DNA from: Craspedostauros australis
Lineage: Eukaryota
Length of the DNA: 44,669 nt
Assembly (NCBI GenBank): GCA_030167865.1
Contig: JALAGF010005860.1
Location: 1 to 44,669 of the forward strand
Direction: 5' to 3'
In this document: positions 3 to 44,669 of the stretch, in pieces
How positions within the stretch are numbered: position 1 is the first letter of the stretch
How the letters are laid out: each line of letters starts with the position of its first letter
Notes under the pieces: model-generated
Told to the model about the DNA's origin: nothing
Seen by the model: the letters and a program-made list of their open reading frames with translations, nothing else
Databases searched by the model: none
Translations under genes and position numbers: made by a program

Positions 3-2129
3 GAAGAAGAAAAGAACGAGGGAACGGAAGCGAAGGAGGACGAAGGGAAGGAAGGAGAAGAGCCGGGACAGATGGTGGTGGTCATCAACACGGAGGAAGC
101 AATAGGCCAACGAAACCGAAAGAGAGCAGACGTGAGCCCAACGCAAGGAAGCAACAACGAACAGCCAAGCAAGAGGCTGAATGCGGATGAATCGACGGAA
201 GAAAGCAACGAAGCCGCAATGGACAACGACATGGCAAGCACAGACGAGGCAGGCAATGAAACGCAGGTGGAGAACGAGGATACTCAAGACACAATGTCAG
301 TGGGCAATGACGAGGAGACACAAGTGGGCAACAATTCCAATGCCGGGGAACCATGGACAGAAATTGTCCATCCGGTGGTCAATGTGGTAACAAGGAAGCA
401 GGACATAAAGTACTGCGACCTGCAGATCATGGTGAACGGAGGAGCGGGGTCAAGAGATGTCAAGGTGGCAATGGAAGCAGTCATAGGTTCGTGCAAGGAT
501 TTCTTGCGAACCATCCAGCAGGTCAACACAACAGCAAGACTCCTGCCTTGGGACACAAAGGAAGACTACATCCGAATCCATGCTCTGGACGATTTTCCAA
601 AGGACATGACGACTTTGAAGAAATTCTTCAAGGGAGCGAAAGCCCTGTACGGAGCGACAAGAGCCAAGGCGTACTACAAAGTCAGAATCGAATGCGAGGG
701 CAAAGTGAGTGAGATTGCCGAAGAACTCAACGACTTCTTCGCGGTGGAGCAAGGAAGGTTCAGCGTAGCCAAAATCCAGGCACCATCGACGACAACCATC
801 GGATGGCTGCTCTATTCTACCAGACAGGTGGGAGTGGAAGAGCTGGAGGAAGAGCTGACAAAGCGCACGAAGCGACCGGTTGCTACAAACTGGAAAAGGA
901 TCTCTGACGGCACCAAGTTTGATCCAGACCGCAACACGGAGAACGATGCAAGAGCGCTGCATGTGGAGACGGCAACAGAAGACAAAGATGTGGTCACAGA
1001 AACATTGATGCACTACTACGGCACCGAGTCAAGGAAGTTTCCGTTGGGCATCAGAATGCGAATGGTGACACCGCTAGCAGGAATCGTGAACACAGACGTG
1101 AGAAGTGGATGGTTCGCCCTGAGAGAGAGACAAGCAGGGTGGTGCAAAGAAGCACAGGCAGTCACATCTTACGACCTCATCAACGAGACATTGGAGGCAA
1201 TACCAGTGGGGTACAACAAGACCCTACGATCCATGATCATGCAAATTAAGGCGACAACTGGGAATACAAACACGCCATTATTCACTTCAGTGAACAAGAA
1301 GTGGAGAGGGGCCGGGTATGTATTCCAATTCCATCCAGCCAAAGAGATGGAGGCCAAGATGATGATCAAAGGGTTGCTGGTAAGGTTGGTGGCAGAATAC
1401 GGAGTGGGCATGGAGATGTATTTTACATCCCTGGCACGAACGGAAGCCAAAACCATGAAGTGGGATGCGGAGGCAAAGAGAGTGATCTCGGAGAAGGACA
1501 AAGCAGTCGAGGCAGCCTTAGCAGGAGACGACGACATGCATTTCACACAACCAGTGGAAAGTGAAGATGAGAAACCACTAGCGACACGGGAGTGCGATGC
1601 CAGACCAGAGAAAGACTACGGCGACAGTGACACAATCCCTTCACTGCGCAATGCATCCGAATGGAGAAAGATCTCCGAAAGACAAGAAGCCAGGAAGGCG
1701 GCAGCAAGGGAGGCAGAGGAGGACGCGAGCACCATAGCATCAAGGTCGACCTGCAAGACATCAAGGACAGCAGGAACGAGCAAGAGGTTGGTGTCCATTG
1801 AAGCCAAGCTAGCAGAAATGCTGGAGACCCGAACCCAGCGGTCAGCCCTGTCGACATTGTCCGGGAGTACACGGAGGTCCAAAGAAACGGTGAAGAAAGA
1901 GATGAAAGAATTGCGAGAACAGATGGCACAAATGCAAGCGATGATGGCAGCAGCAATGGAGGAAAACAAGGAGCTCAAGGCAAGAGCGAAGGAAGCTCAG
2001 CCGGAGCAGGAAGTAAGGCCACCAGAGGCCCAGCGTGACATAACGGGAAACCCAACGGCCGACAACCCGCGGGACCCGCGCGAAATTGAGGAAGCAGGTG
2101 CTGTGCAAACGGCGCCTGCGAATGGTTGA
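3..2129 (+). CDS. LINE ORF1 protein (5'-partial), acidic N-terminus and C-terminal coiled coil
   Basis: The frame is open from position 3 through the ATG at 72 to TGA 2127-2129. It lies directly upstream of the RT ORF, and the segment KKEMKELREQMAQMQAMMAAAMEENKELK looks like a coiled coil. Confidence 0.82.
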   Translation, partial: EEEKNEGTEAKEDEGKEGEEPGQMVVVINTEEAIGQRNRKRADVSPTQGSNNEQPSKRLNADESTEESNEAAMDNDMASTDEAGNETQVENEDTQDTMSVGNDEETQVGNNSNAGEPWTEIVHPVVNVVTRKQDIKYCDLQIMVNGGAGSRDVKVAMEAVIGSCKDFLRTIQQVNTTARLLPWDTKEDYIRIHALDDFPKDMTTLKKFFKGAKALYGATRAKAYYKVRIECEGKVSEIAEELNDFFAVEQGRFSVAKIQAPSTTTIGWLLYSTRQVGVEELEEELTKRTKRPVATNWKRISDGTKFDPDRNTENDARALHVETATEDKDVVTETLMHYYGTESRKFPLGIRMRMVTPLAGIVNTDVRSGWFALRERQAGWCKEAQAVTSYDLINETLEAIPVGYNKTLRSMIMQIKATTGNTNTPLFTSVNKKWRGAGYVFQFHPAKEMEAKMMIKGLLVRLVAEYGVGMEMYFTSLARTEAKTMKWDAEAKRVISEKDKAVEAALAGDDDMHFTQPVESEDEKPLATRECDARPEKDYGDSDTIPSLRNASEWRKISERQEARKAAAREAEEDASTIASRSTCKTSRTAGTSKRLVSIEAKLAEMLETRTQRSALSTLSGSTRRSKETVKKEMKELREQMAQMQAMMAAAMEENKELKARAKEAQPEQEVRPPEAQRDITGNPTADNPRDPREIEEAGAVQTAPANG

Positions 2130-5100
2130 GCAGAGAGGGCAGGGTCGACCGCTGGTGGAGGCACAGCAGAATGACCTGAGCCCAAATGCTCCTGCGGACG
2201 CATACGATATACCGCATCGCAGCGGCTGCAGCAATGAGGGAAGTAAGGAGGAAGGGTGCGAAGATAGATTGGGGGATATGATGATGAGGAAGAGGCAAGG
2301 AAGGCTGAGGATTGGCATGCAGAACTTCGGAGGGTTCCGTAGGGTGCCAAGCAACGTGGATGAAGGATTAAAGCAATGGATGAACGAAGGCGAGTTTGAT
2401 GTGTTTGGGATAACTGAGGTGAACGTCGATTGGCGAGGAGTACAGGAAGAGGCGCGACTGAAACATCGAATAAGAGAGTGGTGGCCAACGGGGACCACAC
2501 AAGCAACAACAGCGAACAACACCAACGACGAAGTGATGAGAAGCAAACAATGGGGAGGAACTGCAATTGTTAGCCGATACCAAGCGGCTATAAGGATGGC
2601 CAAGGCTGGGTGGGACGATGCGAATTTAGGGCGATGGGTGTGGCAGCTGTACCGAGGAGCAAAGAAGCAACGACTACGCGTGGTGGTGGCATACAGACCT
2701 TGTCGGCCACGAACAAAAGGAGTCTTGAACACGTATGCACAGCAGCGAAAATATTACAACGAAAAAGGCAAAGACGTGGAACCAAGAAATCGCATGCTGG
2801 AGGACCTGGAAAAGCAGGTCAAGGAATGGAGCGCTCTCGGCGACCACATCGTGGTGATGATGGACTGCAACGAAGACACCCGGTCGAAAAGGATCATGGA
2901 ATTCCTGCAGAACACGGATATGGTTAACGCGATGGACGCAAACGAAAATGAAGCCGGTGCTACAGCAACACATCGGCTTGGGAAAAAGCCCATAGACGGG
3001 ATATTCGTGACGCGGTCCATCAAAGTGGAGAGAGCCGGGTTGACCAGGTGGGATGAAGGGATTCAGGAAAGATGCGCAGACCACCGGTGCCTGTGGCTGG
3101 AAGTAAGCATGGCAGGAGTACTGGGGCAAGAAATGCCACCGTTACGAAGGGCAGTAGCGCGAAGAGTGAAGACAGAGGACCCGAGGATCGTCGAAAAATT
3201 TAATGACGAATATGAGAGACATCTGAGCCAGCACAATGCGAGGGAGAGAGCAATCACACTAGAGCGACGAACGAAGGAAGGATGGGACGAGCAGATGGAG
3301 AAAGAGGCAGAAGCGCTGGATGACATACGAGTATCGGGGATTTGGAAAGCTGACAGAAGGTGCAGGAAGCTTCGAATGGGAGGCATTCCATACTCTAGAG
3401 AGTACAAGCAGATTGAGGCGAGGATCGGGCTATGGAATAACATTAGCAGGAAGCAGGCAGGCAGGAAGGTGTCAACATCCCTGTTGCAGAGACAAGCCAA
3501 ACGAGCTAAGGAGGACCGAAGGATAGCAGAGATGGTGAGAATGGAAGCGAAAGACGTGCGACAAGAACAGACAAAGGCATACGACGCGCTCAAAATATTC
3601 CGAAAAAGAGCAACAGAGTCGCGAAGCGAGTGGCTGGAGAGGATAGCAACCGCGAGGGCGAAAAAGGAGGAGAGTGCGCAAGGTAGACCAAAGAAAATGA
3701 AGAAAAACAGAGGGCAACGGACAGCATCACAGCTGCAGCAACTGCGAAGGAAAGAAGCAGTGCGAGCGATGTACCGACGAATCAGGCAAGCATCCGGCGG
3801 CGATGGAGCTGGGGGAATATCAATGGTTATTGCACCCAACGCTCACGGAGTATGGGAAGAGCGAACAGAGCAAGGAGGAATTGAAAGAGGTTGCATGGAA
3901 GAGAACCAGCGCAGGTTCCGGCAAACGGAGAATACACCCTTTATGTACGGAGAACTGGCACGGGACTTCGGATTCCTCGGCACGTCGGACGCAGCACAAG
4001 CTACATTACGAGGACAGTACAGTGTGTCGAAATGGGTGGATGTAGGAGCGCGGAAGCTCATCGAAGGACTACAGACGGTGGCGACCAACGACATACCGGC
4101 AGGGATGACAACGGATGAGTTCCAAGCCGGATGGGACAAGTGCAAAGAAGACACATCGGCAGGACCGTCAGGGCTGCATTTTGGGCACTTCAAGGCCATA
4201 GCGAAGCGTCGGAGCAATTCAGAATTCGAAGCAAGTATGTCGTCGATTGCAATGAAGTCGGGGTATTCGTACAAGAGATGGAAACAAGGGGTGGACGTGG
4301 AACTCATGAAGAAAGCCAATAGCTACCGAGTGGACAAGCTACGGACAATTGTGCTCTTCGAAGCAGACTTCAACTTCTGCAACAAAGCGATCGGCAGGAA
4401 GGCTGCGGTGCAAGCCGAAAAACAGCACGGTTTCGCAGAGGAACAATACGGGAGTCGAAAGGGACACAAGGCAGTCGAGCACGCCCTCAACAAGCAGTTG
4501 ACGCTTGACTGGTTGCGACAAACCAGGACGCCGGGGCTGCTGTGCTCGAACGACTTAAAGAGCTGTTACGATAGGATTGTACACTCGATCGCATCCATGG
4601 GATTGCAACGACAAGGAGTGGCCCAAACGGAAGTGCGAAGCATGTTCACGACACTGCAGCAGCTGGAACATTACATCAGAACTGTGTATGGCGATTCCAC
4701 CGCGGCATACAGCGGGCGACATAACCGGGTGCCTATGCAAGGAATCTACCAAGGCAACGGGGCCGGACCAGTGATATGGGCTGTCATATCATCCCCGATG
4801 CTCGACATCATGAGAAAAGAAGGTCATATGGCGCACTTCGAAACAGCAACGAGCAACCAGACGGTCGGGATTGTCGGATACGCGTTCGTTGACGATACGG
4901 ATTTGGTGGTAAATGCAAGAAACGGCGAAAGGATAGAGGATGCCGTGGAAAGGATGCAGAATAGCGTGGACGAATGGGAGCGATTGGTGCGGGCGACAGG
5001 TGGGGCGCTGGTGGTTGAAAAAAGCATGTGGTGGGCAATCGACTTCGCGTGGCAGCAGAACGGAGAATGGAGGTATGCCACAAATGCCGAAGTGCCGGCG

Positions 5101-7914
5101 ACGATATCCATGCGAGGCAACAGCGACAGCAGACAGAATATGCCGCGAAGCGAGGCACATGAGGCTTTCGAGACCCTCGGGGTGCGGCTGGCCCCAGACG
5201 GCAACGGCAGGGCGATACATGAGGCGATGGCATCAAAAGCGAGAGGGTGGGCGGAGAAGGTCCGTACCAAACGCATACGCAAACAGGATGCGACAGCGGC
5301 GATGAGCACGGTTCTGCTAAAAAAGCTGGAGTACGTTCTACCAGTAGCACAACTCTCAGAGCAGGAATGCAGAGCGGTGATGCAGCCGGTATGGAAAGTG
5401 ATGATGTCCAAAATGGGTTACAATCGTGGTTTCCCGAGGGCAATGATCAACGCTGCGGCAGGTCAGTTAGGGGCTGACATACACGAGCTCCATACAACCC
5501 AAGTAATGGAGCACATTACAATGGTGATGGAGCATGGCGAGCGCGATACCATGACAGGGCGGCTGTTAAGAGGGTCGATGGAGGCGATGAAAGTCGAGAT
5601 AGGAACGGGCAAGCCGCTCTTCGAGATGGATGTCCGAAAGTGGGGGTTCCTGGCTACAGAATGTTGGATCAAGACAGTGTGGCAGGAAGCTCAAGAATAC
5701 GGGATTAGCATCTGCGAAAAGACCGAAGGGGCAAGGAAGGTACGACGGAATGACAGGTGGCTGATGGAGGAGCTAGACAGGCTGGGGTACACCAAAGATC
5801 AGTTGAGGCGAATCAACCGGTGCAGGATATTGATGAAAGTCATGACTGTGGATGATGTTCGCGGCGGCGAGGAAGTATTGCGATGGCACACAGAACGAGG
5901 ACGGTGGAGCGGGCGGCGACACATTCGATGGCCGAGGCAAGGTGCAGTACCGGATGCCGACTGGTCTCTGTGGCGACGAGCGGTAGCAATGGCACGCGGC
6001 AGCAGCACGGATCAAGGAGATGCAGAAGCACGCAGGTGGTACGCAGTGTGGAATTCGTCGAAACAGAAAGTTTGGACGTTGGCAGCGGAACACGAGTGGG
6101 AGGAATGGGAAGCGAGCGAAGGAGACGTCGCAGGGATGCAGGGGTTCCGACGAGCTCGCGAAACGGTGTCATCAGAGGAGGTCCACGGGAGAGAGGTGAA
6201 ATTGCGAGAGGCGAACGGCAAAGTGTACGTGGTCGAAGTAGGACGAAGGGCGCATGTGCAGACGAAAGAGAGAGCAGGACGAGATCCTGGAAATGATTTA
6301 GGGGAATGGATCCATGCCGTACAGCAAGGACGGGCGGTGATAAGCACAGATGGGTCATTCAAGGATGGAAGGAGCACAGCGGCGTTCTCGCTCAATGTTA
6401 GAGGACGACGCGAAGGCTACCTTCGGATGGCAGGCGACGTGTTGGGGCGACCAGAGGTGCAGAGCGCCTATCGGGCAGAGCTAGGGGGCATTTATTACGC
6501 CCTGAAGACTGCACGGGAGGTGGTAAGCCGGCAGAAGCGAGGGTGGTCAGAGCAAGCGGCAATCGTGGTCGCATGCGACAACCGAATGGCAGGGATCCAT
6601 GCCATTGAGTACGATAGGGACGTACCAGTGAAGGCCCAGCATTTTGACCTGCTGCGGGCGATCCGCCGAGAGCAACGAATGATGCCGGTGAAGCTGGTGT
6701 ATCGACATGTGTATGGGCATCAGCTGGAGAGGGCCAGAGGAGTCAAGATTGATGAGTTCTCGTACTGGAACGATGATGTGGACAGGATGGCAGGGGAAGA
6801 GCAAGGCAGAGGGCAGCCGGCAAAGGATGCAGAGTTGCACGACAGCGAATGGTCTGTGTGGATTGGCCATGACAAGATATGTGTGAACGCCAAGGATACT
6901 GTTCGCGAGCATGTGCAACGGCAGAAGACGGAGAGGTGGCAGCAGCGCGCTGGCAAGATGGATCGGGAAGGCATGAGTGACGTCGACGGCCAGTCTATAC
7001 GGGCGGCGTTGAAAGGGCTGGGCGGCAACCGGAGACGCTGGGTGGTAAAGCATGCCGCGCACTTCGGGCCAGTTGGACGGAATATGCGGAAGTGGAAGTT
7101 CTGGGGTGATGGTTTGTGCCCAGTGTGCAAGGCGGAGGAGGAAGACACTGCTCATGTGATGAGGTGTCAGCACCCGGCTGCAGTACAGGTACGAAACACG
7201 GCCCTCGCGAAGTGGGAGGACTCTATGCGAACGCAAGGAGGGGACCCGCGCATGGTGCGAGAGATTGTCCGGCAGGTTCGTATGTGGTCGGACGGCACAG
7301 AATCGGAGCCGCAAGGGTGGTCCGACGTGCACCGGGCAGCAGTGGCACAAGGCAAGATCGGGTGGGACAAGATGGTGCTAGGTAGGTGGTCGAGGCAGTG
7401 GCGGCAGGTCCAGGCTGAAACGATGCGCAGCATGGGGGCACGAGGTACGGCCACGAACTGGATCGGGAGAGCGATCGCAGGGTTGTGGGAAGTGCGGTGG
7501 GCTGCCTGGCAAGCGCGTAATATGGCGCTGCACGACGATGAGGCCTGGAAGAAGCAAACCATGAGAGAGAGGCAAGCACAGGTCGAGGTTACTGCCACTT
7601 GGAATCAAGGCAGCGACGGCCTACAACAGAGGGACGTCGGTCTGATGAAGAACACCAGCGAGGAGCAAATCCGGAGAATGCCGGTGGATGAGCAACTAGC
7701 ATGGGTGCGGCACGTGGCGGCGGCTCGGATAGGATCGGCGGCCGCAAGAGTGCGACGGGCACAGGCAAGGGAGGAGGCGACGATCGAATGCGATGATGGT
7801 CGGCAAGGCAACGGGCGAGTGGGGGAGGATAACGGCAGAAGGAGGAGGCAGACGAGGAAGCGCGCCAGCAGTCTCCAGTTAGGGAGAGCAAGGTGTAAGC
7901 AAGCGAGGAGGTGA
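2122..7914 (+). CDS. LINE ORF2 polyprotein: APE endonuclease, reverse transcriptase, RNase H, CCHC-type Zn finger
   Basis: APE motifs IGMQNFGG, GITEVN, VMMDCNED, IDGIF, ADHRCL; RT motifs SNDLKSCYDRI, GIYQGNGAGP, YAFVDDTDL; RNase H motifs ISTDGSFK, YRAELGG, VACDN, HVYGHQ, WNDDVD; Zn finger CPVC..EDTAHVMRC. First ATG at 2122; the frame is open from 2044. Confidence 0.95.
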   Translation: MVEQRGQGRPLVEAQQNDLSPNAPADAYDIPHRSGCSNEGSKEEGCEDRLGDMMMRKRQGRLRIGMQNFGGFRRVPSNVDEGLKQWMNEGEFDVFGITEVNVDWRGVQEEARLKHRIREWWPTGTTQATTANNTNDEVMRSKQWGGTAIVSRYQAAIRMAKAGWDDANLGRWVWQLYRGAKKQRLRVVVAYRPCRPRTKGVLNTYAQQRKYYNEKGKDVEPRNRMLEDLEKQVKEWSALGDHIVVMMDCNEDTRSKRIMEFLQNTDMVNAMDANENEAGATATHRLGKKPIDGIFVTRSIKVERAGLTRWDEGIQERCADHRCLWLEVSMAGVLGQEMPPLRRAVARRVKTEDPRIVEKFNDEYERHLSQHNARERAITLERRTKEGWDEQMEKEAEALDDIRVSGIWKADRRCRKLRMGGIPYSREYKQIEARIGLWNNISRKQAGRKVSTSLLQRQAKRAKEDRRIAEMVRMEAKDVRQEQTKAYDALKIFRKRATESRSEWLERIATARAKKEESAQGRPKKMKKNRGQRTASQLQQLRRKEAVRAMYRRIRQASGGDGAGGISMVIAPNAHGVWEERTEQGGIERGCMEENQRRFRQTENTPFMYGELARDFGFLGTSDAAQATLRGQYSVSKWVDVGARKLIEGLQTVATNDIPAGMTTDEFQAGWDKCKEDTSAGPSGLHFGHFKAIAKRRSNSEFEASMSSIAMKSGYSYKRWKQGVDVELMKKANSYRVDKLRTIVLFEADFNFCNKAIGRKAAVQAEKQHGFAEEQYGSRKGHKAVEHALNKQLTLDWLRQTRTPGLLCSNDLKSCYDRIVHSIASMGLQRQGVAQTEVRSMFTTLQQLEHYIRTVYGDSTAAYSGRHNRVPMQGIYQGNGAGPVIWAVISSPMLDIMRKEGHMAHFETATSNQTVGIVGYAFVDDTDLVVNARNGERIEDAVERMQNSVDEWERLVRATGGALVVEKSMWWAIDFAWQQNGEWRYATNAEVPATISMRGNSDSRQNMPRSEAHEAFETLGVRLAPDGNGRAIHEAMASKARGWAEKVRTKRIRKQDATAAMSTVLLKKLEYVLPVAQLSEQECRAVMQPVWKVMMSKMGYNRGFPRAMINAAAGQLGADIHELHTTQVMEHITMVMEHGERDTMTGRLLRGSMEAMKVEIGTGKPLFEMDVRKWGFLATECWIKTVWQEAQEYGISICEKTEGARKVRRNDRWLMEELDRLGYTKDQLRRINRCRILMKVMTVDDVRGGEEVLRWHTERGRWSGRRHIRWPRQGAVPDADWSLWRRAVAMARGSSTDQGDAEARRWYAVWNSSKQKVWTLAAEHEWEEWEASEGDVAGMQGFRRARETVSSEEVHGREVKLREANGKVYVVEVGRRAHVQTKERAGRDPGNDLGEWIHAVQQGRAVISTDGSFKDGRSTAAFSLNVRGRREGYLRMAGDVLGRPEVQSAYRAELGGIYYALKTAREVVSRQKRGWSEQAAIVVACDNRMAGIHAIEYDRDVPVKAQHFDLLRAIRREQRMMPVKLVYRHVYGHQLERARGVKIDEFSYWNDDVDRMAGEEQGRGQPAKDAELHDSEWSVWIGHDKICVNAKDTVREHVQRQKTERWQQRAGKMDREGMSDVDGQSIRAALKGLGGNRRRWVVKHAAHFGPVGRNMRKWKFWGDGLCPVCKAEEEDTAHVMRCQHPAAVQVRNTALAKWEDSMRTQGGDPRMVREIVRQVRMWSDGTESEPQGWSDVHRAAVAQGKIGWDKMVLGRWSRQWRQVQAETMRSMGARGTATNWIGRAIAGLWEVRWAAWQARNMALHDDEAWKKQTMRERQAQVEVTATWNQGSDGLQQRDVGLMKNTSEEQIRRMPVDEQLAWVRHVAAARIGSAAARVRRAQAREEATIECDDGRQGNGRVGEDNGRRRRQTRKRASSLQLGRARCKQARR

Positions 7915-10907: not shown

Positions 10908-13900
10908 TTACAAGTCTTCGTCGATGTCAGCTGGTTTCACCATGCCGGGCACAGCCTGTCGTTGCGCCAGCATTTGCTGCCGATGTTGCTGTCGTTCCCG
11001 TTCCTTCTCCTCCGTGTACAGCGCGGAGTTATCCTCGCTGGAGAATTCCTTCAGCTCGATCAAAAAGTCCCGAAGATGAGTCTTGAAGGTTGGCAGGTCC
11101 ATCTGCAAGTTCAGCATGCCCTCGATGAACTTCGTTACTTGGGTCTTCGTCAGGTTGGGGAAGCTCGATAGTAGGAGGGTCGACACGTGCGCCCGCAGGA
11201 AGGCCGGGTTGGTCTGACCGGCTGGTTGCGACGCCGGATCGAACAGCGGGACGGTCACCTGGTTCATCTGCACCAGATGGAACATCTGCCGCAGCAACGT
11301 GGCATGCATCTTGAACCCGGACTTGTGCAAACGATCTGTCATCACAGCGAACACGTCCTGGATCAGGGACAGGAGGTACTGCTGGTAGAAGCCCTGCGCC
11401 ACGTTCGGCGTCTGTCCCACATTTTGCAGCAGCTCATTCAGGATCTCCAAACCTGTGTCGGAGATGTTACGTTCCGTGTGCTTCATGGCCCACACGACGG
11501 AATGCACCACGAGTTTCTGGTGCTCAGGCGGTATGTTGAACAGCGCCGGGAAGCAGTGTCGGTTGATCGCCTGTTTGTTTGGTTGTGTGACGCGACACAG
11601 GTTTGTCATGTTGATTTGTTGTCGCACACCGTACGTAGTGCATGGGACGTATGTGTATATGTGTATGTGGTACGTGCGGATGTGAGGATATAAGCAGCAG
11701 AGCATGTGAGACCGATGTTGCGATTGCGTTGTATCATATCGTATGGAGATGCAATGTGTGCACGTTCGTGGAGCAAAGATTGATGCACTCTCTATCGGTA
11801 CTCGTAGAGAGCATCCATCCATGTCCCACAGCACAATCTTGTCATCACCAAGCCAAGCTATCACAATCCAACACAAAATAGCACTTACCTTCAAGAATTC
11901 AAAGAATCGAATGCGATGCTCGGGGAAGTCCTCGAAGTTCTTGGTGATCATGTCCAAGGTGCATTCGAAGACGGCCTCCATGATGCGTGGGACTTCCGCC
12001 ACCACGTTGGTTTTCAGCTTCCCGACCACCGTTGAGAACAGCGACAGCACCTCAGGATCACGAGCGCCGGCGATGTTGCGTTTGTAGTCGCCGAGAATGG
12101 GGTCGAGCACCGGCGGGATGAAACCTTTGGCCACGGCCATGGGCTCGGCTTCAGGTGGGCCGCTCCTGTCGATGAAGACGATGAGTAGTCGAAGCACCTC
12201 CTTCTTGGCAGAGCGCATGGTTCGGACCAGCGACATTTGCGTCGCGATGGCACCCTGCTGTGCCACGGCCGCCGATATCCTTTCGGAGTAGACGCGGTAC
12301 ACATTGAGCATGTCGAGGAAGAATGTCTGCAGCTGATGCGTGAAGAGACTGCCAACCGACCGACACACGCGGTTGTTCGTTTTGAGGATCTTGACGATCT
12401 CCTTGATGGTGGGCGGCGCGACCAGCGACTCCACGTTCGTCTTGGCCTGATCCATGATGGTTCGCCAGGACTGGTTGGGCAGCTCCATCAGCTTCGCCAG
12501 CAATCCCTGCCTGTCGAGGTTGAGCGTTGGGCCACGGTCATTGAGCATGCACCCAACGGCCTCGTAGAATGCCTGCACCTGATGCGGCTCTAGATCCGAT
12601 ATGATGCTTGGCAGACCGTCCACGAGTTCGCAAATGAATGGCATGGCCTCCTCAGATTGGAGAGTGACGAATTTGCGCTTGCATTTGGTCGAGATTTTGA
12701 GGAAGGTGTCGCATGCCATGTCCTGCACGCCAGGGTGCACCTCGTGCATGAATTCAAACAGCTTGTTCACCACGGTCTTCAGGAACTTCCAGTGCGCCTT
12801 GAGGAATCGCGGATACTGCCCGACCACGTACATGATGTTGGATGCCACGACGGCCTTGTTGTCCTTGCCGCGCTTCTGTTCGCACAGTCCGAGGAGATCC
12901 TTGATGACCGTCACGAGGAAGCGCTTTTCTTCGTCTTCCGACATGGCTCCGCTGATACTGCCGATGGCCCAGCACAAGGTGTTGAGATTGTTCCAGCTCC
13001 ATCCCGACCCGTCGACCTGCTCCGTGAGCTTCGCCAGCATGATGGACTCCGTGTCTTCGCAGTTGAGATGGGTGAGGTATACGAGCGTGTCTCGCATGGT
13101 CTTGTATTGTGCGATGACGTCGGTGTCCTTGGTCGTTTCGCGGACGATGTCTCCGTTCTCATCCTCCACAATCAAGACCTCTTCTGGCTTGGCCATGCTG
13201 GAAATCATGACCTGCCTGACTCCGCTGAGGACCGGTGCGTAGAGGAACTTTCTTGATGATGCCGTCGTGGTGTTTCCATTGAGGTTGAGGACGCTGCCGC
13301 CGTTGGCAGTGCCCGTGGCACCGCGGTCGCCAAAGATCTGGTAGTGCTCCGTCTTGTACAGATCCTCCGCCAGCATGTGCCACGCCTCGAGGCAGATTCG
13401 GAAGATCTCAGTCTCCTTGACTTCGCTGACGCGGACGAGGTAGAACATGCCGGTGATGAGGCTGGGGTGCGATTCTGGCGCCTCGAGCACCTTGAGATGT
13501 GCCTTGACGAATCCCGAGAGGAAGAGGGCGAGCTTTTGGATGAACAACCGATCGTCCTCCGACCCCTGATCGAAGGCCTGTTGCAGCGGAGCCTCCGGCG
13601 TGAAGATCTTGGCGAGCTCCTCTAGGAATTTGGTGAAGAGCTGACGGAAGAGCGGGTCGTACTGCGGTTCCAGGTCCTGCAGGGTGCCGATCTCCGTGAG
13701 ACAGTCGAGCGCTTCGTTGCGGAACACCGGCTCCGAGAAGAATTTGAGAAGGATGTTGATGAGTTCCGTTTGGAAGATGAAGCCGAGCGGGATCCAGGTG
13801 AGGAATCTTTGGAGGGTTTGCAGGGTGACTCGGAGCAGACTGGGCGTTTTGGAATGTTCGAAGACGAAGAGGCAGAGCTGGAAGATGAGCTGGAACTGGC

Positions 13901-15088
13901 TGTTGAGTGATTCCTTGAGCCTCTTGACCTTCTCTGTGACCATCTGGTCCCTGGAGAAGTCGAATACCTCCTCGGAAAGGAGCTTGAGGATTTGCATGTT
14001 GTTTTCGCAGAGGACCTCCGAACCGCGGGATGAGCCGACGAGATCCCCGATGAAGCTTTCCCAGTTGTGCGGCCATTCGTGCTTGAGGATCTCGATGAGG
14101 GTGAGATTGAGCTTCCCGATGAACACCTTCTCCGCCTTCATGGTCGACTCCTCCTGCGACATTTTGATGATCTTCCCCACGACGTAAGATTTGATGCCCT
14201 CTCGTTGTTCCTTCGGAAGGATCTTCCATCTGTGCAATTGTCACATGCGGTGTTAAATACGGTGAGTGTCGGCGGCAGTGTTTGGTAACAGCAGCGGTAT
14301 TGATCGTTGGTGAATAGCAATGCAGAGCAACGGAAGCGCGCATTCGAGAGTGTGTTGGTATTGGCGTTGTGTTTATGGTTGCATGAGAATGTGCCGAAGA
14401 AGGAGATGCATTTGTGTGCGTGTGCGTGTGTGTGTGTGTGATTGTGGTTGGATGAAGTTGCGGAAGGGAATGGATAAATGAATGCGCGCATTGATGCATG
14501 AAGGAAGGCGATGGAGTGGAAGGCATGCATTGATGTATCGATGTATCGATGATTGAATTTAATGAACCGTCCGGTCGATGAGTTGGGTGAGGGATGTGTA
14601 ACAAAACGGAACGAATGGATGAGGCTAAGCGAACGATGACATGATGTGACCTCGGAGCCCAAGAGTCCCGCTGCACACGTTTGCACAGCATCCGAGTGGG
14701 GCGGAGCTGATTCTGGCTTGATTCGAGCCGAGACGAAAGAATGGAGAGCAAAGCGAGAGAGCAAACAAAGCAAAAGGATTGCATTCATGCAATCGCACAG
14801 GCACACGCCAAATGATCGCGCTTACCTCGTTTTGATCGCATCGTCGAGGACCTGCAAACCGAAGAATCTGGAGTTTGGATTGCTGGACTTTTCAATGATG
14901 CCGTCCGCCTTCTGCCAGAGGTTGGGCGACTCCTGCAGCTGCATGAGGGCCTTGTTGGCAGCCGCTCGATGTGGACTGACTGGATCGTAAGCGGCGCCGA
15001 CCACCTGATCGAGCAACGTGATATCAAATTCCCCACTGCCGTTGCAGGCCGACAGCAGTTGCTGCGCGATTTGTTCGAGCGACGCCAT
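10908..15088 (-). CDS. XPO1: Exportin-1 (CRM1), 3 exons, about 1088 aa
   Basis: Exons 15088-14826, 14229-11889 and 11570-10908 with GTAAG donors and CAG acceptors join in frame. Hallmark motifs: [65 protein letters not shown] (includes the leptomycin-B-reactive Cys), [15 protein letters not shown]. Confidence 0.97.
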
Positions 15089-20849: not shown

Positions 20850-21125
20850 ATGAAGTTCACTCTCTTCCTCATCGTCTTCTTCGCGGTCATCGCCGCCGTT
20901 ATGAGTACGACCGCCGATGCACCAGAAGGCCGCATCCTCAAGACCAAGGCACCAAAGGAATCCAAGGCGCCAAAGGAGAGTAAGGCACCAGAAGGCCGCC
21001 TCCTCAAGACCAAGGCACCAAAGGAATCCAAAGCGCCAAAGGAGAGTAAGGCGCCAGAAGGCCGCCTCCTCAAGACTGGCGCACCAAAGGAATCCAAGGC
21101 GCCCAAGGAGACTAAGGCACCATAA
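20850..21125 (+). CDS. Secreted Lys-rich repeat peptide precursor, silaffin-like (91 aa)
   Basis: Signal peptide MKFTLFLIVFFAVIAAVMS, then three 20-aa repeats R(I/L)L-KTKAPKESKAPKESKAPEG with KxxK motifs; CA-rich leader directly before the ATG. Confidence 0.8.
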   Translation: MKFTLFLIVFFAVIAAVMSTTADAPEGRILKTKAPKESKAPKESKAPEGRLLKTKAPKESKAPKESKAPEGRLLKTGAPKESKAPKETKAP

Positions 21126-21172
21126 GGCCGCCTCCTCAAGACCAAGGCACCAAAGAGAACCAAGACGCCATA
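20919..21172 (+). repeat. 60-nt tandem repeat, about 4 copies, with 18-nt sub-repeats
   Basis: Unit gcaccagaaggccgc(a/c)tcctcaagaccaaggcaccaaaggaatccaaggcgccaaaggagagtaag; the fourth copy starts gcaccaTAAggccgc and is truncated. Confidence 0.92.
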
Positions 21173-22383
21173 GGCAGTCTGGGCTCCGCTTCGGCTCTAC
21201 TTCGTGAAGAGACATTGGTTCGTCTCACCGCGCTCGTGGCGACGAGACGGATCAAACACGCCTTGGATGGGCCCGCGGAAGAATGCTCCTCTTTGGTTGC
21301 ATCATCGTAGCAGCAGCAACAGCAGCAGCAGCGCTCAGAATGCAACCGACCTCCTTGTACCAGCATGTACTGGTACCAACCAACCAATTCAATCAATGTC
21401 ATATATAATAATTGGGATCATGAGCATCGCTTCTCATGGCCCGATCAAGTCTGCAGCTTCGTGTGTTTAAGCACTGCCTCGCGACGATCCATAAAGAATG
21501 GGCCCGTATCAGCGCGGATGAAATAACTGCGGCGCATCGCGTCTCGCCGGGCCAAAGCACAGTCTTGCGAGGCGACGCAGGACGCGGTGCTTGCCCATGT
21601 CGCATAACAGCCATCATCCTTGTCATAACATACAGCCTACACAATACGAGTAAGCCCAAACGCTATAGAGAAAGCAGAAGTTTGCGTGCTTATCTGTACC
21701 GAACATTGTTAGGTATGCTGCTGCTGTCATCATCATTCCACCCATTTCACATCGGCCGATGGCGGCCCTCGTCTCCACGCTTCGGCGGGATCCTCTTCTT
21801 GCTCGCACCGGAATGCCGCACTTGCGCCGAACCAGAGGCTGTTATCGGGCGGACCAAGTGAAAATGATGTCTGTTGGTGGCAGCTCTCCCAACGAGTTAT
21901 GCATGCCTTCATCTCGGTCTGCCTTCGAGCACGTGCCGCCTTTGTTGCGCGAGTAGTCGTAATCGTGGACGATTAAGTGAAGTCCCAAGCTTTCCTCGCA
22001 GCACGCACCCTTGGGGCATGCTGAGCCGAGCTGAGGCGGCAAGCTGCAAGGCAATCATGTCGCCCCATGGGTTGGTTCCGCAGGAACGGTATCCCATGTC
22101 GGTGATGTGAGTGGTAGTGGCAGTGGTAGTGGACAGCATCATCGTCACTTGAGCAACAGGACAGCATTGACACCTGGTCCCATTGTCGGTATCACTATCT
22201 GTTGGTGAGCATTTGCCGTTGTGTTCATCTGTTCGCCAACGTAATGACACTTCTCCCCCCACACGTGCACAAACTGCTCTACTCCGACGAGGACCCTGGA
22301 CTGGGAATGACTGATGAGAACGACCGATGTGGTCAATGCCACCAATTCTTCCGAACAGCGGATGGTGGGGATCGTCTGCCGAC

Positions 22384-40433: not shown

Positions 40434-41540
40434 GTACTGCACGGCCAGCTTGCAACAAGCGCCAGCCACGATGGTGCGCGTAAGCGTATCACACTGGCAT
40501 GCATGTTCGTGGTGGCGATGCAGGTGGTGGAAGTCACGATGTCCCGCCATTGAGCAGGAAGACGAGGGTGCAGAAAGCAGATGGCATCGTCCCACAATGC
40601 CAACTGAGGAAGGACGAAGCAACATGAAGAGGAAGAGGCGGAGGAGGAGGAGGAAGCCACAACAAAACTCACAGCGCGATACAGCACAGAACAGCACAAG
40701 GATGCACGATGTAACAATGCATAGAGTATGACAAGAACACACGAAAGCGGACCGCATAATACAACTATTGTAGAGATGATGCATGGACTCGATGGAGTAT
40801 GGTATCAGCCTACTCGTAGTGCGACACACACACACTCTCTGGAGACGGCCCTGAAACATGGGGGATCTTGGCTGGAGGGTATGGCGCAAGCAAGTGGCAA
40901 CATGTGCCTGTGATGGTTGCATTCGTGTTGGTGGTTCGTCTGTCTGCTGTTGGGCATGAGATGCACAAGGTCTTTGGTGGGGGGATCTCTTTTGTCTTCT
41001 ATCTCTGTGTCTTGGTTCCTGTGCGTGCCACACATTTCAGACATGCGAAAACGACGGAACCATCAACACAAAAAGCCATCAACTGAAAGGACAAACATCA
41101 CAAAACGTGGACTCTCTCGCAACAAGAACGGTGGCAGACTGACATCGAGGTTATTTGACGCAGCGACGCTCCTCTGTCCGCTCTTCCCACGCTGCTTCAA
41201 CACTTCCGCAAGTCCTTCCACTTTCTTCAAGTTGGGAATGCCACTCCGAAGGGTCTCCCCCTTGAGACATGAGGGTGTCACATCTCGAGGGTGGATGCAG
41301 ACGATGCTGGTGTCCTGACAACATGACGACGCGGTGAACGCAAAAGCATGTGTCCAAGGCAGACATGGAAGACATGGAGGACATGGAAGTGAAGGACCCA
41401 GCCACAACAGCACAATACCGACAGCTCAGCTTCTGCCACAATCCAGGCACCGCAGACGACAATCCAAACACTGGAAACAACCCCACTTGAGGCAACGTCA
41501 CTGAGCAGAGGTGTTTACCAAACGCATCGTGGAACAAATC

Positions 41541-42362
41541 ATGCCATCTTCAGCTGTTGAAACTGTTGCCATCACCGGCATCGTCGCGACGACGAAATCG
41601 TCGAGGCTGACGGCGGCCAACATCAGCACCATCAAGGCACGCACCTCATCATCAACTTTGACTGCCAGGTCAACGTCCACACCGACGTCAACGAAACGCA
41701 GGAAATCGCACCGGCAGAACGTGCTGGTGCTCGGAGCGAGGGGTCGCACGGCCGTGGAGATCGTTCGGCAGCTATCCGAACATCCATCGAAGCCATCCAT
41801 CCACACAGTCTGCCAGAACACATCGAAGCTGGCAGATGATCCCACGGTCTCGCGTCTCTGCACGAGCATCATGCAAGGCAACGCGCGCAGCCCGAAGGAC
41901 ATGGAGCAAGCGATCCGGCGATCGCAGGCAACCACCATCGTCATCGCCTTCCGTGACATCCACAGCGTGGGACGCACGAATTTGCGACACACCAATGCGA
42001 ACGTCCTCGTCGACCTCCTGCAACGGCCTGAGCATCAGCACATCCAGGTCATCATCGTGTCCACCATCGGCGCCGGACCCACCACTGTCTACGGCGGCGG
42101 CTTCGGCAGGACGATATGGAAGCAGCACCGCATGCGCTTCGTCATGGTCGATCACACACTGCAGGAACGAGCCTTCCTGCGCACCTTGAGAGATCGCATC
42201 GTCATCGTCCGACCCACGGAACTGACGGACGGCAAGGCCAAGGGCAAGATCCAGGTGTTCGGTGACTATGACCGGACGCCCAGCAGCAAGACGGATCGGC
42301 AGGATTTGGCGCATTGGATCGTCAACCAGATCTGCGGAGAGGTGAAGCATGAAGGTAAGTGA
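41541..42362 (+). CDS. NAD(P)H-binding Rossmann-fold protein (atypical SDR / flavin reductase-like)
   Basis: VLVLGARGRTA dinucleotide-binding motif, IIVSTIGAG, DHTLQE, IVIVRPTELTDG, TDRQDLAHWIV. The 3' end is uncertain because the stop overlaps a GTAAGT donor-like site. Confidence 0.82.
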   Translation: MPSSAVETVAITGIVATTKSSRLTAANISTIKARTSSSTLTARSTSTPTSTKRRKSHRQNVLVLGARGRTAVEIVRQLSEHPSKPSIHTVCQNTSKLADDPTVSRLCTSIMQGNARSPKDMEQAIRRSQATTIVIAFRDIHSVGRTNLRHTNANVLVDLLQRPEHQHIQVIIVSTIGAGPTTVYGGGFGRTIWKQHRMRFVMVDHTLQERAFLRTLRDRIVIVRPTELTDGKAKGKIQVFGDYDRTPSSKTDRQDLAHWIVNQICGEVKHEGK

Positions 42363-42572
42363 CAGCTTTCACTGTACTTCTTACCTCTTTACTAATCGTA
42401 TTAATCAAATACTGGTCGGAGATTGTCCTCGGACAACTCACAATAAAACAACAAGAGCTCCGACCAGGGCACGCAACAACGGGCCAATCAGTCTCAGTAG
42501 TTACTTGCACGTTTGACAGATTAAGAGTCGTGATATCACCAACAAGCTTATCACTATAACACCACTTCCACC

Positions 42573-43949
42573 ATGACGAGAACGATCAACAACAAGGCAG
42601 TAGCAGGATACATCAAGGAGCTTGTCGGGCTGAACGAGCAGCAGATGTCCTTCATCACGAGCACTCTTGGACGCATCGACAATGCCATCCGCCTCACCGA
42701 CCAAGAAATCGTGGACTCTTTGGTTCACTCCCCATCTCTCAACCCCGTCAACATCGGTAACGTCATGCGCATCTTTGAATACGCACGTCACAACGCCGTC
42801 GACGACACAACGAACTGGGAAGCCATCCATGACTTCAACGAAGGTCGCAACTACAAGCTGCCAACCATCGACTCGTCCGTGGCGATCTCGACGACCAAAC
42901 TTCGACTCGAGATGGACATGAAGACAGCGGCCGCAGCTGTGCAAACCAACGAGATGGTTGTACGCTCGCCGCAACGCGGAGGCGCAAGCATGCGCTCTCC
43001 ATCAACACCTACCAACTGGCGCTATGACAAGGTCTCCATCCCCGACCCTCTCCCTTTCTCCGGTCTGAATGAAGACTGGCGCGATTGGAAGATATCGTTC
43101 GAGCGGTCCATGGTGACCACTCGATTCTCCAAGTACATGGACCCGGAACGTCCAGCTGGATACGAACAGCATGTCGACCGGCAGTTCCATTCGGTCATCA
43201 ACGCATTGACCTATCAGGGAGACGCCGATTTCCTTGTCTCAGCCAACCGCAACAGTGGACACGATGCCTGGCAGGCATTGATCCAGCTCTACGAATCCGA
43301 GGAGAACAAGGCGCAAACAGTCGCCGAACAAGAAGTCTACCTCACCCAGCTCTCCTTCGACGGATCCGAGCCATTCACCAAGTACGTCAACGCGTTCTCC
43401 AAGTCCATTCAAGTCATGAAGGACAACGGCAAGGACATGACGGAAGAGCACGTCATTGCGCAATTCTTCCGCAACATCCGCGATGAACGATACATGAGCG
43501 AGGTGTCGCATCTCCGAAAGCAGAAGCTCACCTTCGCAGAGATCCGCAAGGAACTCATGGAGCATGATCGTGTGCTGACTAACATCGAAGCACACCAATC
43601 TCCTCGGCGAAACCGCCGACTCCAGACCAAGCCGGGCGGACGCAACGACCGCAAGCGACCACACGATGGTCAATCCGGCGACCGCAAGTCCGCGCCCGCA
43701 TTTCGGCTGTCGGACAGCGTATTCAGACGCCTCCCAGCCTGCCAACAGGCACTCCTTGTGGAGGCCACGCGGCACTACCGCAAGAACGGGAAGAACATCG
43801 ACGATGAGACCCTCAAGAAACTCAAGCCAGCGGAATTCGCACAGAATCTCCAGCTGCCGCTCACACGCAGAGCAGCCAAGCGCGACCAACCCCACGGGAC
43901 CCCGACTCGCGACGGCAAGAAGCGCGGATCATACGGCGACAGCTCTTGA
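42573..43949 (+). CDS. Copia-type Gag (458 aa)
   Basis: FSGLNEDWRDWKISFE, SGHDAWQALIQLYE, LSFDGSEPFTKYVNAF, QFFRNIRDERY resemble copia capsid motifs; basic C-terminal region; ends TGA CAA CCA. Confidence 0.85.
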   Translation: MTRTINNKAVAGYIKELVGLNEQQMSFITSTLGRIDNAIRLTDQEIVDSLVHSPSLNPVNIGNVMRIFEYARHNAVDDTTNWEAIHDFNEGRNYKLPTIDSSVAISTTKLRLEMDMKTAAAAVQTNEMVVRSPQRGGASMRSPSTPTNWRYDKVSIPDPLPFSGLNEDWRDWKISFERSMVTTRFSKYMDPERPAGYEQHVDRQFHSVINALTYQGDADFLVSANRNSGHDAWQALIQLYESEENKAQTVAEQEVYLTQLSFDGSEPFTKYVNAFSKSIQVMKDNGKDMTEEHVIAQFFRNIRDERYMSEVSHLRKQKLTFAEIRKELMEHDRVLTNIEAHQSPRRNRRLQTKPGGRNDRKRPHDGQSGDRKSAPAFRLSDSVFRRLPACQQALLVEATRHYRKNGKNIDDETLKKLKPAEFAQNLQLPLTRRAAKRDQPHGTPTRDGKKRGSYGDSS

Positions 43950-44006
43950 CAACCAACGGCGGGCACACTTCGCCGTCAGTCTGAGGTTGCCATCCGTATC
44001 AAGCCC

Positions 44007-44102
44007 NNNNNNNNNNNNNNNNNNNNNNNNNNNNNNNNNNNNNNNNNNNNNNNNNNNNNNNNNNNNNNNNNNNNNNNNNNNNNNNNNNNNNNNNNNNNNN
44101 NN
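44007..44102. other. Assembly gap (96 N)
   Basis: Run of N characters. Confidence 1.
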
Positions 44103-44669
44103 CGCAGGGCAAGAGTGATGGACGGTAGCCAGGGCTACATCATATTGGACTCAGGGGCGGACGGCGACATCGTGCATGCATCCGGATGGGTGGTGACCCG
44201 AAAACACAAGCAGACTTTCCAAGCCCGCGGGGCGACGATGGAATCGCAAATCGAGACTTTCCAGATGGTCGACGCGGTGGCAGCATATGAATCACCCACA
44301 GGGGATGTGGTTCTGATCAAGGCAAACTACGTGGCGCTCGACGAGCACCCAAGGCAGACAGAATCGTTGATGAATACTCATCATATGCGCGCGTCCGGAC
44401 TGAACGTCTACAATCGCCTACTTCAACACCAAGGGCAGCAGCGCATCGCGTCAGGGGGGATCAGTATACCACTGGCCAATCATGACGGCAACACTCTGCG
44501 CATACCCATACGAAAACCGACGGCTCACGAGCTCGATAACACTACTAAGCATATCACGATATGCGACAGACACCAACGACTTCGGCGTAACAACCAACGG
44601 GTTGACTTCGGCGAAGTGTTCAAGCATCTCCCACAGCAGGTGGTTGAGAAGACCATGGCGGCATCAACC
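44103..44669 (+). CDS. Copia Pol N-terminus (aspartic protease), partial
   Basis: Not in the ORF track. The frame is open from the end of the gap to the window end: RRARVMDGSQGYIILDSGADGDIV...TESLMNTHHMRASG...IPIRKPTAHEL, with protease motif LDSGA. Confidence 0.85.

Follow-up and report, generated by a model that had tools for sequence, protein, structure and literature searches.

A copia-type gag and protease at the end of the window

The stretch of DNA analysed here (hereafter the window) comprises 44,669 nucleotides (nt) of Craspedostauros australis (GenBank assembly GCA_030167865.1, contig JALAGF010005860.1, forward strand). At its far end lies an element that, on its sequence features, is the 5' part of a long terminal repeat (LTR) retrotransposon of the Ty1/copia type (Pseudoviridae), truncated by the end of the window, in which a UGA closes gag ahead of the start of pol and is followed by a hexanucleotide of the leaky-stop type CAR-YYA. 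The gag open reading frame (ORF) of 458 codons starts with ATG and extends over positions 42573-43946 on the forward strand, where both the ORF listing and the translation show it closed by a TGA at 43947-43949. Its product belongs to the Pfam family PF14223 (Retrotran_gag_2; E-value of 6.1e-07 and 29.5 bits, barely over the cut-off of 27), which bears out the copia gag label of the original prediction, and it is colinear with the gag of P0006, the closest relative.

Downstream of gag, the beginning of pol (44103-44669, forward strand) is recognizable by translation and by similarity to P0002: an RRAR motif is followed by the aspartic protease signature D-S-G at 44148-44156, within the protease motif LDSGAD at 44145-44162. 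This protease piece has no match to any Pfam family and shares 42% identity over 178 amino acids (aa) with the beginning of P0002, a polyprotein of 1322 aa that contains an RVT_2 domain at residues 828-1030, after its protease. From 44103 onwards the nominal gag frame reads RRARVMDGSQGYIILDSGADGD, and 189 codons are open up to the window end at 44669, which cuts the element inside the protease.

The window contains neither a second copy of the element nor a recognizable LTR pair, the 3' end of the element being outside the window, and no repeat of the upstream region of the element was found within it. A tRNA scan showed no tRNA gene, no clear primer binding site was seen, and an Rfam search of 42300-44669 returned zero matches at E up to 1. 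The element does not appear to be a decayed copy, because CpG dinucleotides are not depleted (observed/expected 1.18 and 1.08 in the element, compared to 0.98 in the rest of the window) and because the TGA is the sole interruption in its 666 visible codons (458 + 19 + 189).

The UGA stop codon and its context

The gag stop codon is immediately followed by CAACCA (43950-43955, forward strand), an exact fit to CA-R-Y-Y-A that also provides the C of a UGA-C context. Among the 665 in-frame hexamers of the element, CARYYA occurs once, precisely after its single stop, and over all frames of the element it is found at 7 of 1991 positions, so that a random stop in this element would have the context ~0.15-0.35% of the time. 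No other observation argues as strongly that the site is functional as this low chance of a CARYYA match. The combined motif TGACARYYA was observed twice on the two strands of the window, against 3.47 occurrences expected from shuffles, and therefore shows no general enrichment in the window. A UGA followed by C is described as readthrough-permissive in several eukaryotes in a preprint on fission yeast retrotransposons (bioRxiv 10.1101/2022.12.06.519325).

Two other accounts of the stop were considered and dropped. Removal of the stop with an intron was discarded, as inspection by eye found no GT dinucleotide within ~90 nt upstream of the stop to begin one. An apparent alignment of the stop with a conserved arginine, which would hint at a CGA to TGA change, depends on where a one-residue gap is placed within low-complexity sequence.

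The assembly gap and the reading frame after the stop

Beyond the stop, the gag frame reads QPTAGTLRRQSEVAIRIKP, a run of 19 sense codons (43950-44006, forward strand) that probably represents the linker between gag and protease, including the junction motif found in relatives. The run ends at an assembly gap of exactly 96 N inside the linker (44007-44102), which an N-run scan identified as the only one in the window. Both edges of the gap fall on codon boundaries of the gag frame, so that the frame is retained whenever the length of the gap is a multiple of three. The original prediction had reported the TGA with the adjoining CAACCA, the 19 open codons up to the gap and, with the gap taken as 96 nt, the identity of the post-stop frame with that of the LDSGA protease; the sequence reading, the ORF listing and the translation confirm the first two of these, and the third holds nominally.

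The codon usage of the element favours frame 0 for the 57 post-stop nt, at 1.79 nats above the next frame; in a leave-out control with 33 equally sized windows the true frame came first in 27, and a margin of 1.79 nats is at the low end of theirs. When a profile of the junction motif built from 11 relatives was compared with composition-matched shuffles, frame 0 ranked 152 out of 2003 (~0.08), and the other two frames ranked 1231 and 1857. By eye, EVAIRIKP in the linker resembles VVVRIKD in P0012, TVAIAMKD in the metagenome locus L004 and RIAISMKD in the locus L002. On the other side of the gap, the RRAR sequence matches the RRGR that precedes the protease in relatives and is aligned with their RRGR...IDPG, and the nominal gap of 32 codons is close to the 36 residues that separate the junction motif from RRGR in P0124. 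Frame 0 thus appears to be the best reading after the stop, with modest coding support. A -1 frameshift into pol was considered and dropped, given that a stop closes the -1 frame ahead of the gap.

Relatives of the element

A full HMMER search, in which the read-through construct was compared with 1.84 billion representatives, yielded 119 matches at E up to 0.001, 18 of them at E up to 1e-10, and all of these matches are distant (20-41% identity). The relatives stem from marine-type metagenome or transcriptome sources, one of them being an MMETSP transcript. Because two of the alignments (A1 and A3) proved too heterogeneous for a pattern search, the closer sets A2 and A4 replaced them. The second of two metagenome scans confirmed four loci of a distant clade among 126 stretches.

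The closest relative of the gag, P0006, aligns over nearly its full length (window residues 14-408 with residues 11-398, E 1e-28). Its gag ORF has 436 aa, compared to 458 here, and the tail past the last aligned position comprises 38 residues, compared to 50. For both P0006 and P0002, the best relative of the protease, the same source and a longest contig of 5877 nt are listed, suggesting that the two probably reside on one contig, as the separate gag and pol ORFs of a single element. The MMETSP transcript encodes a P0006-like gag of the same length of 436 aa that differs at 6 of the 436 residues, which indicates that two diverged sequences retain the P0006 stop.

A distinct clade consists of 12 gag-only representatives (P0015, P0018, P0020, P0021, P0030, P0031, P0044, P0047, P0048, P0061, P0077 and P0112). 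Their ORFs of ~355-390 aa are drawn from different 50% clusters and all end a few residues (6-12) past a K-K-x-I-x-F-x-L motif. This conserved gag terminus may be a better place to seek recoding in the superfamily.

Candidate readthrough and competing explanations

On the strength of these sequence features, programmed UGA readthrough into pol is tentatively favoured as the best single model. Most ribosomes would stop at the linker UGA and yield Gag, whereas a small fraction would decode the UGA with a near-cognate tRNA, aided by the 3' C-AA-CCA (a context of the UGA-C plus CAR-YYA type). These ribosomes would then stay in frame through the linker into the protease and the remainder of Pol, and the outcome would be a high ratio of Gag to Gag-Pol. 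The TGA lies in the linker and gives gag a length close to that in P0006, a position that supports this model. The model supposes that the gap preserves the frame and contains no stop, that TGA is the normal state in this family and that the context is leaky in the host.

Close behind readthrough comes the possible, if somewhat doubtful, explanation that the TGA was produced by a nonsense mutation, or else by an erroneous base call close to the end of the contig, that the CARYYA match is coincidental and that the copy is dead or non-autonomous. In that case, the linker would normally be continuous in the family, or else the natural gag stop would lie further on, inside the gap. The organization of the relatives weighs against readthrough and favours mutation. 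Continuous gag-protease ORFs are common, being carried by at least 9 of the 119 representatives (P0003, P0004, P0007, P0012, P0024, P0028, P0035, P0056 and P0102) as well as by P0124 and the metagenome locus L002. In all three split relatives with a resolvable junction the split is due to indels relative to fused kin, so that every resolvable split arose by mutation. The last residues of P0108 and the first of P0029 can be derived from one DNA translated in two frames, with pol at -1 (13 of 13 steps, where the best of 300 shuffles reached 7), and the 30-residue tail of the gag-only P0123 corresponds at 30 of 30 steps to a different frame of the fused P0124. The loci L003 and L004, in the same linker, share a 1-nt indel and a TGA where the fused L002 has CGA. 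In these two loci (~488-560 in L003 and ~4990-5010 in L004), which are degenerate copies of one family, the indel is located in the acidic linker and the TGA just before the RRGR upstream of the protease.

The 12-member cluster of P0123 and P0124 includes four gag-only, two pol-only and two fused members, and one 90% cluster sets P0123, P0128, P0130 and P0131 against P0124 and P0129 and against P0010 and P0133. This family has a fused 1731-aa gag-pol form and a split form of 434 + 1297 aa, in which the stop of the 434-aa gag overlaps the pol ATG. The four gag-only members come from separate contigs, which suggests that the gag-only form is a common variant in this cluster and not a one-off error.

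The junction motif V-x-I-x-I-K also argues for mutation. It follows the TGA here and precedes the stop, inside gag, in P0006 and in the 12 gag-only representatives; with the motif on the other side of the stop, the position of the stop in the window is common to no relative seen. The TGA is located 58 nt from the contig end at the gap, and base calls tend to be poorer near contig ends. There are 40 codons one step from TGA in the visible ORFs; none of these precedes a CARYYA. What mutation does not readily account for is, above all, this context, which is expected after a random stop at the low frequency given above, along with the fact that the TGA is the sole defect in 666 codons that show no CpG depletion, and its placement in the linker, where P0006 also ends gag at a similar length. 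Programmed readthrough, which the original prediction had proposed, is thus supported in part, and the available data do not separate it from a single inactivating change.

Further points that count against readthrough concern the site itself, the gap and the outcome of the searches. The codon 5' of the stop is UCU, which is not the A-rich context that favours readthrough in yeast according to the preprint cited above (bioRxiv 10.1101/2022.12.06.519325). No significant structure was detected in the 57 nt visible between the stop and the gap: a hairpin of 8 bp that begins 6 nt 3' of the stop (43956-43976, forward strand) falls short when folding is compared with shuffles, the fold of 72 nt having a free energy of -23.7 kcal/mol and a z-score of -1.70, with 11 of 200 shuffles at least as stable. 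The join between the gag stop and the protease lies inside the 96-N gap, the length of which is perhaps only an estimate, and stops or a change of frame could be hidden there; the support of the junction profile for frame 0 is weak. Protein word-index searches found no close relative of the gag at near length among 3115 candidates and none of the post-stop segment with the protease at near length among 219 candidates, and the read-through construct at longer lengths matched only P0002. As for DNA of the relatives, the first metagenome scan matched 25 stretches, of which 0 were confirmed, and none was found in scans of viral contigs (with A4, P0002 and A5) or of prokaryote genome contigs.

It is unlikely that gag normally terminates at the TGA and that Pol is made by another route, namely a +1 shift at UCU-UGA-C, initiation at the ATG at 44118-44120 (as reinitiation or internally), an internal promoter, or splicing. 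The +1 frame has no stop from 43666 through the end of gag and up to the gap, and the length of the gap could place the protease in this frame; however, for the sequence after the stop, codon usage and the junction profile both prefer frame 0 to +1. The ATG at 44118-44120 lies 9 codons before LDSGAD and could serve for initiation, but LTR elements do not normally package a Pol that lacks Gag. An internal promoter finds a parallel in Tca2 of Candida albicans, where the junction alone showed no readthrough and held a minor promoter (PMC2194720). Splicing is opposed by the lack of a GT within ~90 nt upstream of the stop, and under each of these routes the CARYYA match would again be coincidental. 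Finally, it is improbable that the flanks of the gap come from different copies or from a collapsed repeat joined by scaffolding, so that the gag end and the protease are not one molecule: the only gap in 44.7 kb does fall inside a repeat-type element, and repeats are a usual cause of such gaps, but the best relatives of the two sides, P0006 and P0002, apparently represent one element, the order, orientation and spacing agree with those in relatives, and the window holds no second copy.

Other features of the window

Upstream of the element, an ORF for an NAD(P)H-binding protein (NAD_binding_10; 41511-42362, forward strand) ends ~210 nt before the gag ATG, at a GTAAGT-like site (~42346). The retroelement may thus be located in an intron of this gene or directly downstream of it.

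A second retroelement-like unit occupies positions 3-7914 on the forward strand. It consists of an ORF of 685-708 codons (starting at 3 or 72 and ending at 2129) and an ORF of 1942 codons (2086-7914) that is in the +1 frame, overlaps the first by 44 nt and matches RVT_1 with an E-value of 7.5e-08. The unit shows a strong skew of G over C and of A over T, and the overlap of its two ORFs could be another recoding site.

On the reverse strand, positions 10908-14237 contain a gene for exportin-1/CRM1 (CRM1_C with an E-value of 1.2e-116, together with Xpo1 and CRM1 repeats), the long ORF of which apparently crosses an unspliced insert at residues ~790-880 that is probably an intron. An ORF at 13408-14784 on the reverse strand, which happens to have 458 codons as well, was considered as a second copy of gag and rejected; it overlaps the exportin-1 gene, shows no similarity to gag and is an overlapping-frame artefact of exportin-1. 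Finally, a tandem array at 20919-21174 comprises three overlapping copies of a 124-nt unit with a spacing of 66 nt and 88-100% identity.

Relation to known recoded retroelements

An in-frame stop codon between gag and pol is established in murine leukaemia virus. Among Ty1/copia elements, gag and pol of Tca2 (pCal) are divided by an in-frame UGA, and since the gag-pol RNA is the source of Pol, translation has to get past this stop (PMC2194720), by a mechanism that is still unexplained. The element described here resembles Tca2 in being copia-type and in having a UGA between gag and pol. The junction of Tca2, as described in that report, contains a purine-rich spacer and a putative pseudoknot, is devoid of CAR-YYA and, taken alone, gave no readthrough in yeast (PMC2194720); in contrast, the element in the window has CAACCA and no significant structure, and its in-frame join is hidden by the gap. 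A gag-UGA-pol organization is also present in VdLTRE5, a Ty1/copia element of Verticillium dahliae, where the authors call it very rare (PMC3441728). The authors of that study state that VdLTRE5 has no CARYYA, whereas the element in the window does (PMC3441728). The original prediction had held readthrough to be uncommon in copia elements, in agreement with both reports (PMC3441728, PMC2194720).

The view of stop-CARYYA as a leaky context of the tobamovirus type, likewise part of that prediction, agrees with the account in the Tca2 report, which notes that in tobacco mosaic virus a CAR-YYA on the 3' side of the stop is enough for readthrough (PMC2194720). The six post-stop bases in the window fit the consensus of this type I leaky stop exactly. 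However, the classic tobamovirus case involves a UAG in a plant RNA virus, whereas here a UGA is found in a retrotransposon, with a different 5' codon, and readthrough is predicted. In fission yeast, the Ty3/gypsy elements Tj1, Tcry1 and Tosmo1-3 contain a conserved 8-bp sequence GAA-TGA-CT, and the stop is essential for transposition of Tj1, according to the preprint (bioRxiv 10.1101/2022.12.06.519325). These elements share with the one in the window an in-frame TGA between Gag and Pol with C as the next base; they differ in belonging to another superfamily, in having another 3' motif and in the conservation of the context across five elements, compared to the single copy here. The CoDi elements of diatoms are Ty1/copia elements in which protease, integrase and reverse transcriptase (PR-IN-RT) follow in this order and many gags lack CCHC (Maumus et al., 2009; PMC2806351). 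The likeness to the window element, as a copia element of marine stramenopile algae, is by description only, since the grouping CoDi1-7 is based on reverse transcriptase and the window contains none.

A literature search that combined CARYYA or CAR-YYA with 'retrotransposon' found only the Tca2 and VdLTRE5 reports, both of which state that the motif is absent. Accordingly, if readthrough is true here, and as far as these two reports can tell, this would be the first demonstration that a retrotransposon uses the canonical hexanucleotide. The gag-UGA-pol organization as such is already known in copia elements (Tca2 and VdLTRE5) and is rare, so that the novelty, if the site is real, would be the canonical hexanucleotide.

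We therefore put forward only tentatively, as a claim that falls somewhat short of an even chance, that a copia element of a marine protist makes Gag-Pol by UGA readthrough in the canonical tobamovirus-type CAR-YYA context. If the stop is a mutation only, the case is a reminder that a 1-in-400 motif match beside an assembly gap is insufficient to call recoding. The setting of the ratio of Gag to Pol is core retroelement biology, and the in-frame stop in copia elements is rare and poorly understood. If readthrough is true, the element would be a simple, testable copia case with a textbook six-base leaky signal and would provide evidence that the CAR-YYA signal works on the ribosomes of this algal lineage; it could also yield a readthrough cassette, small and portable, for use in the host lineage.

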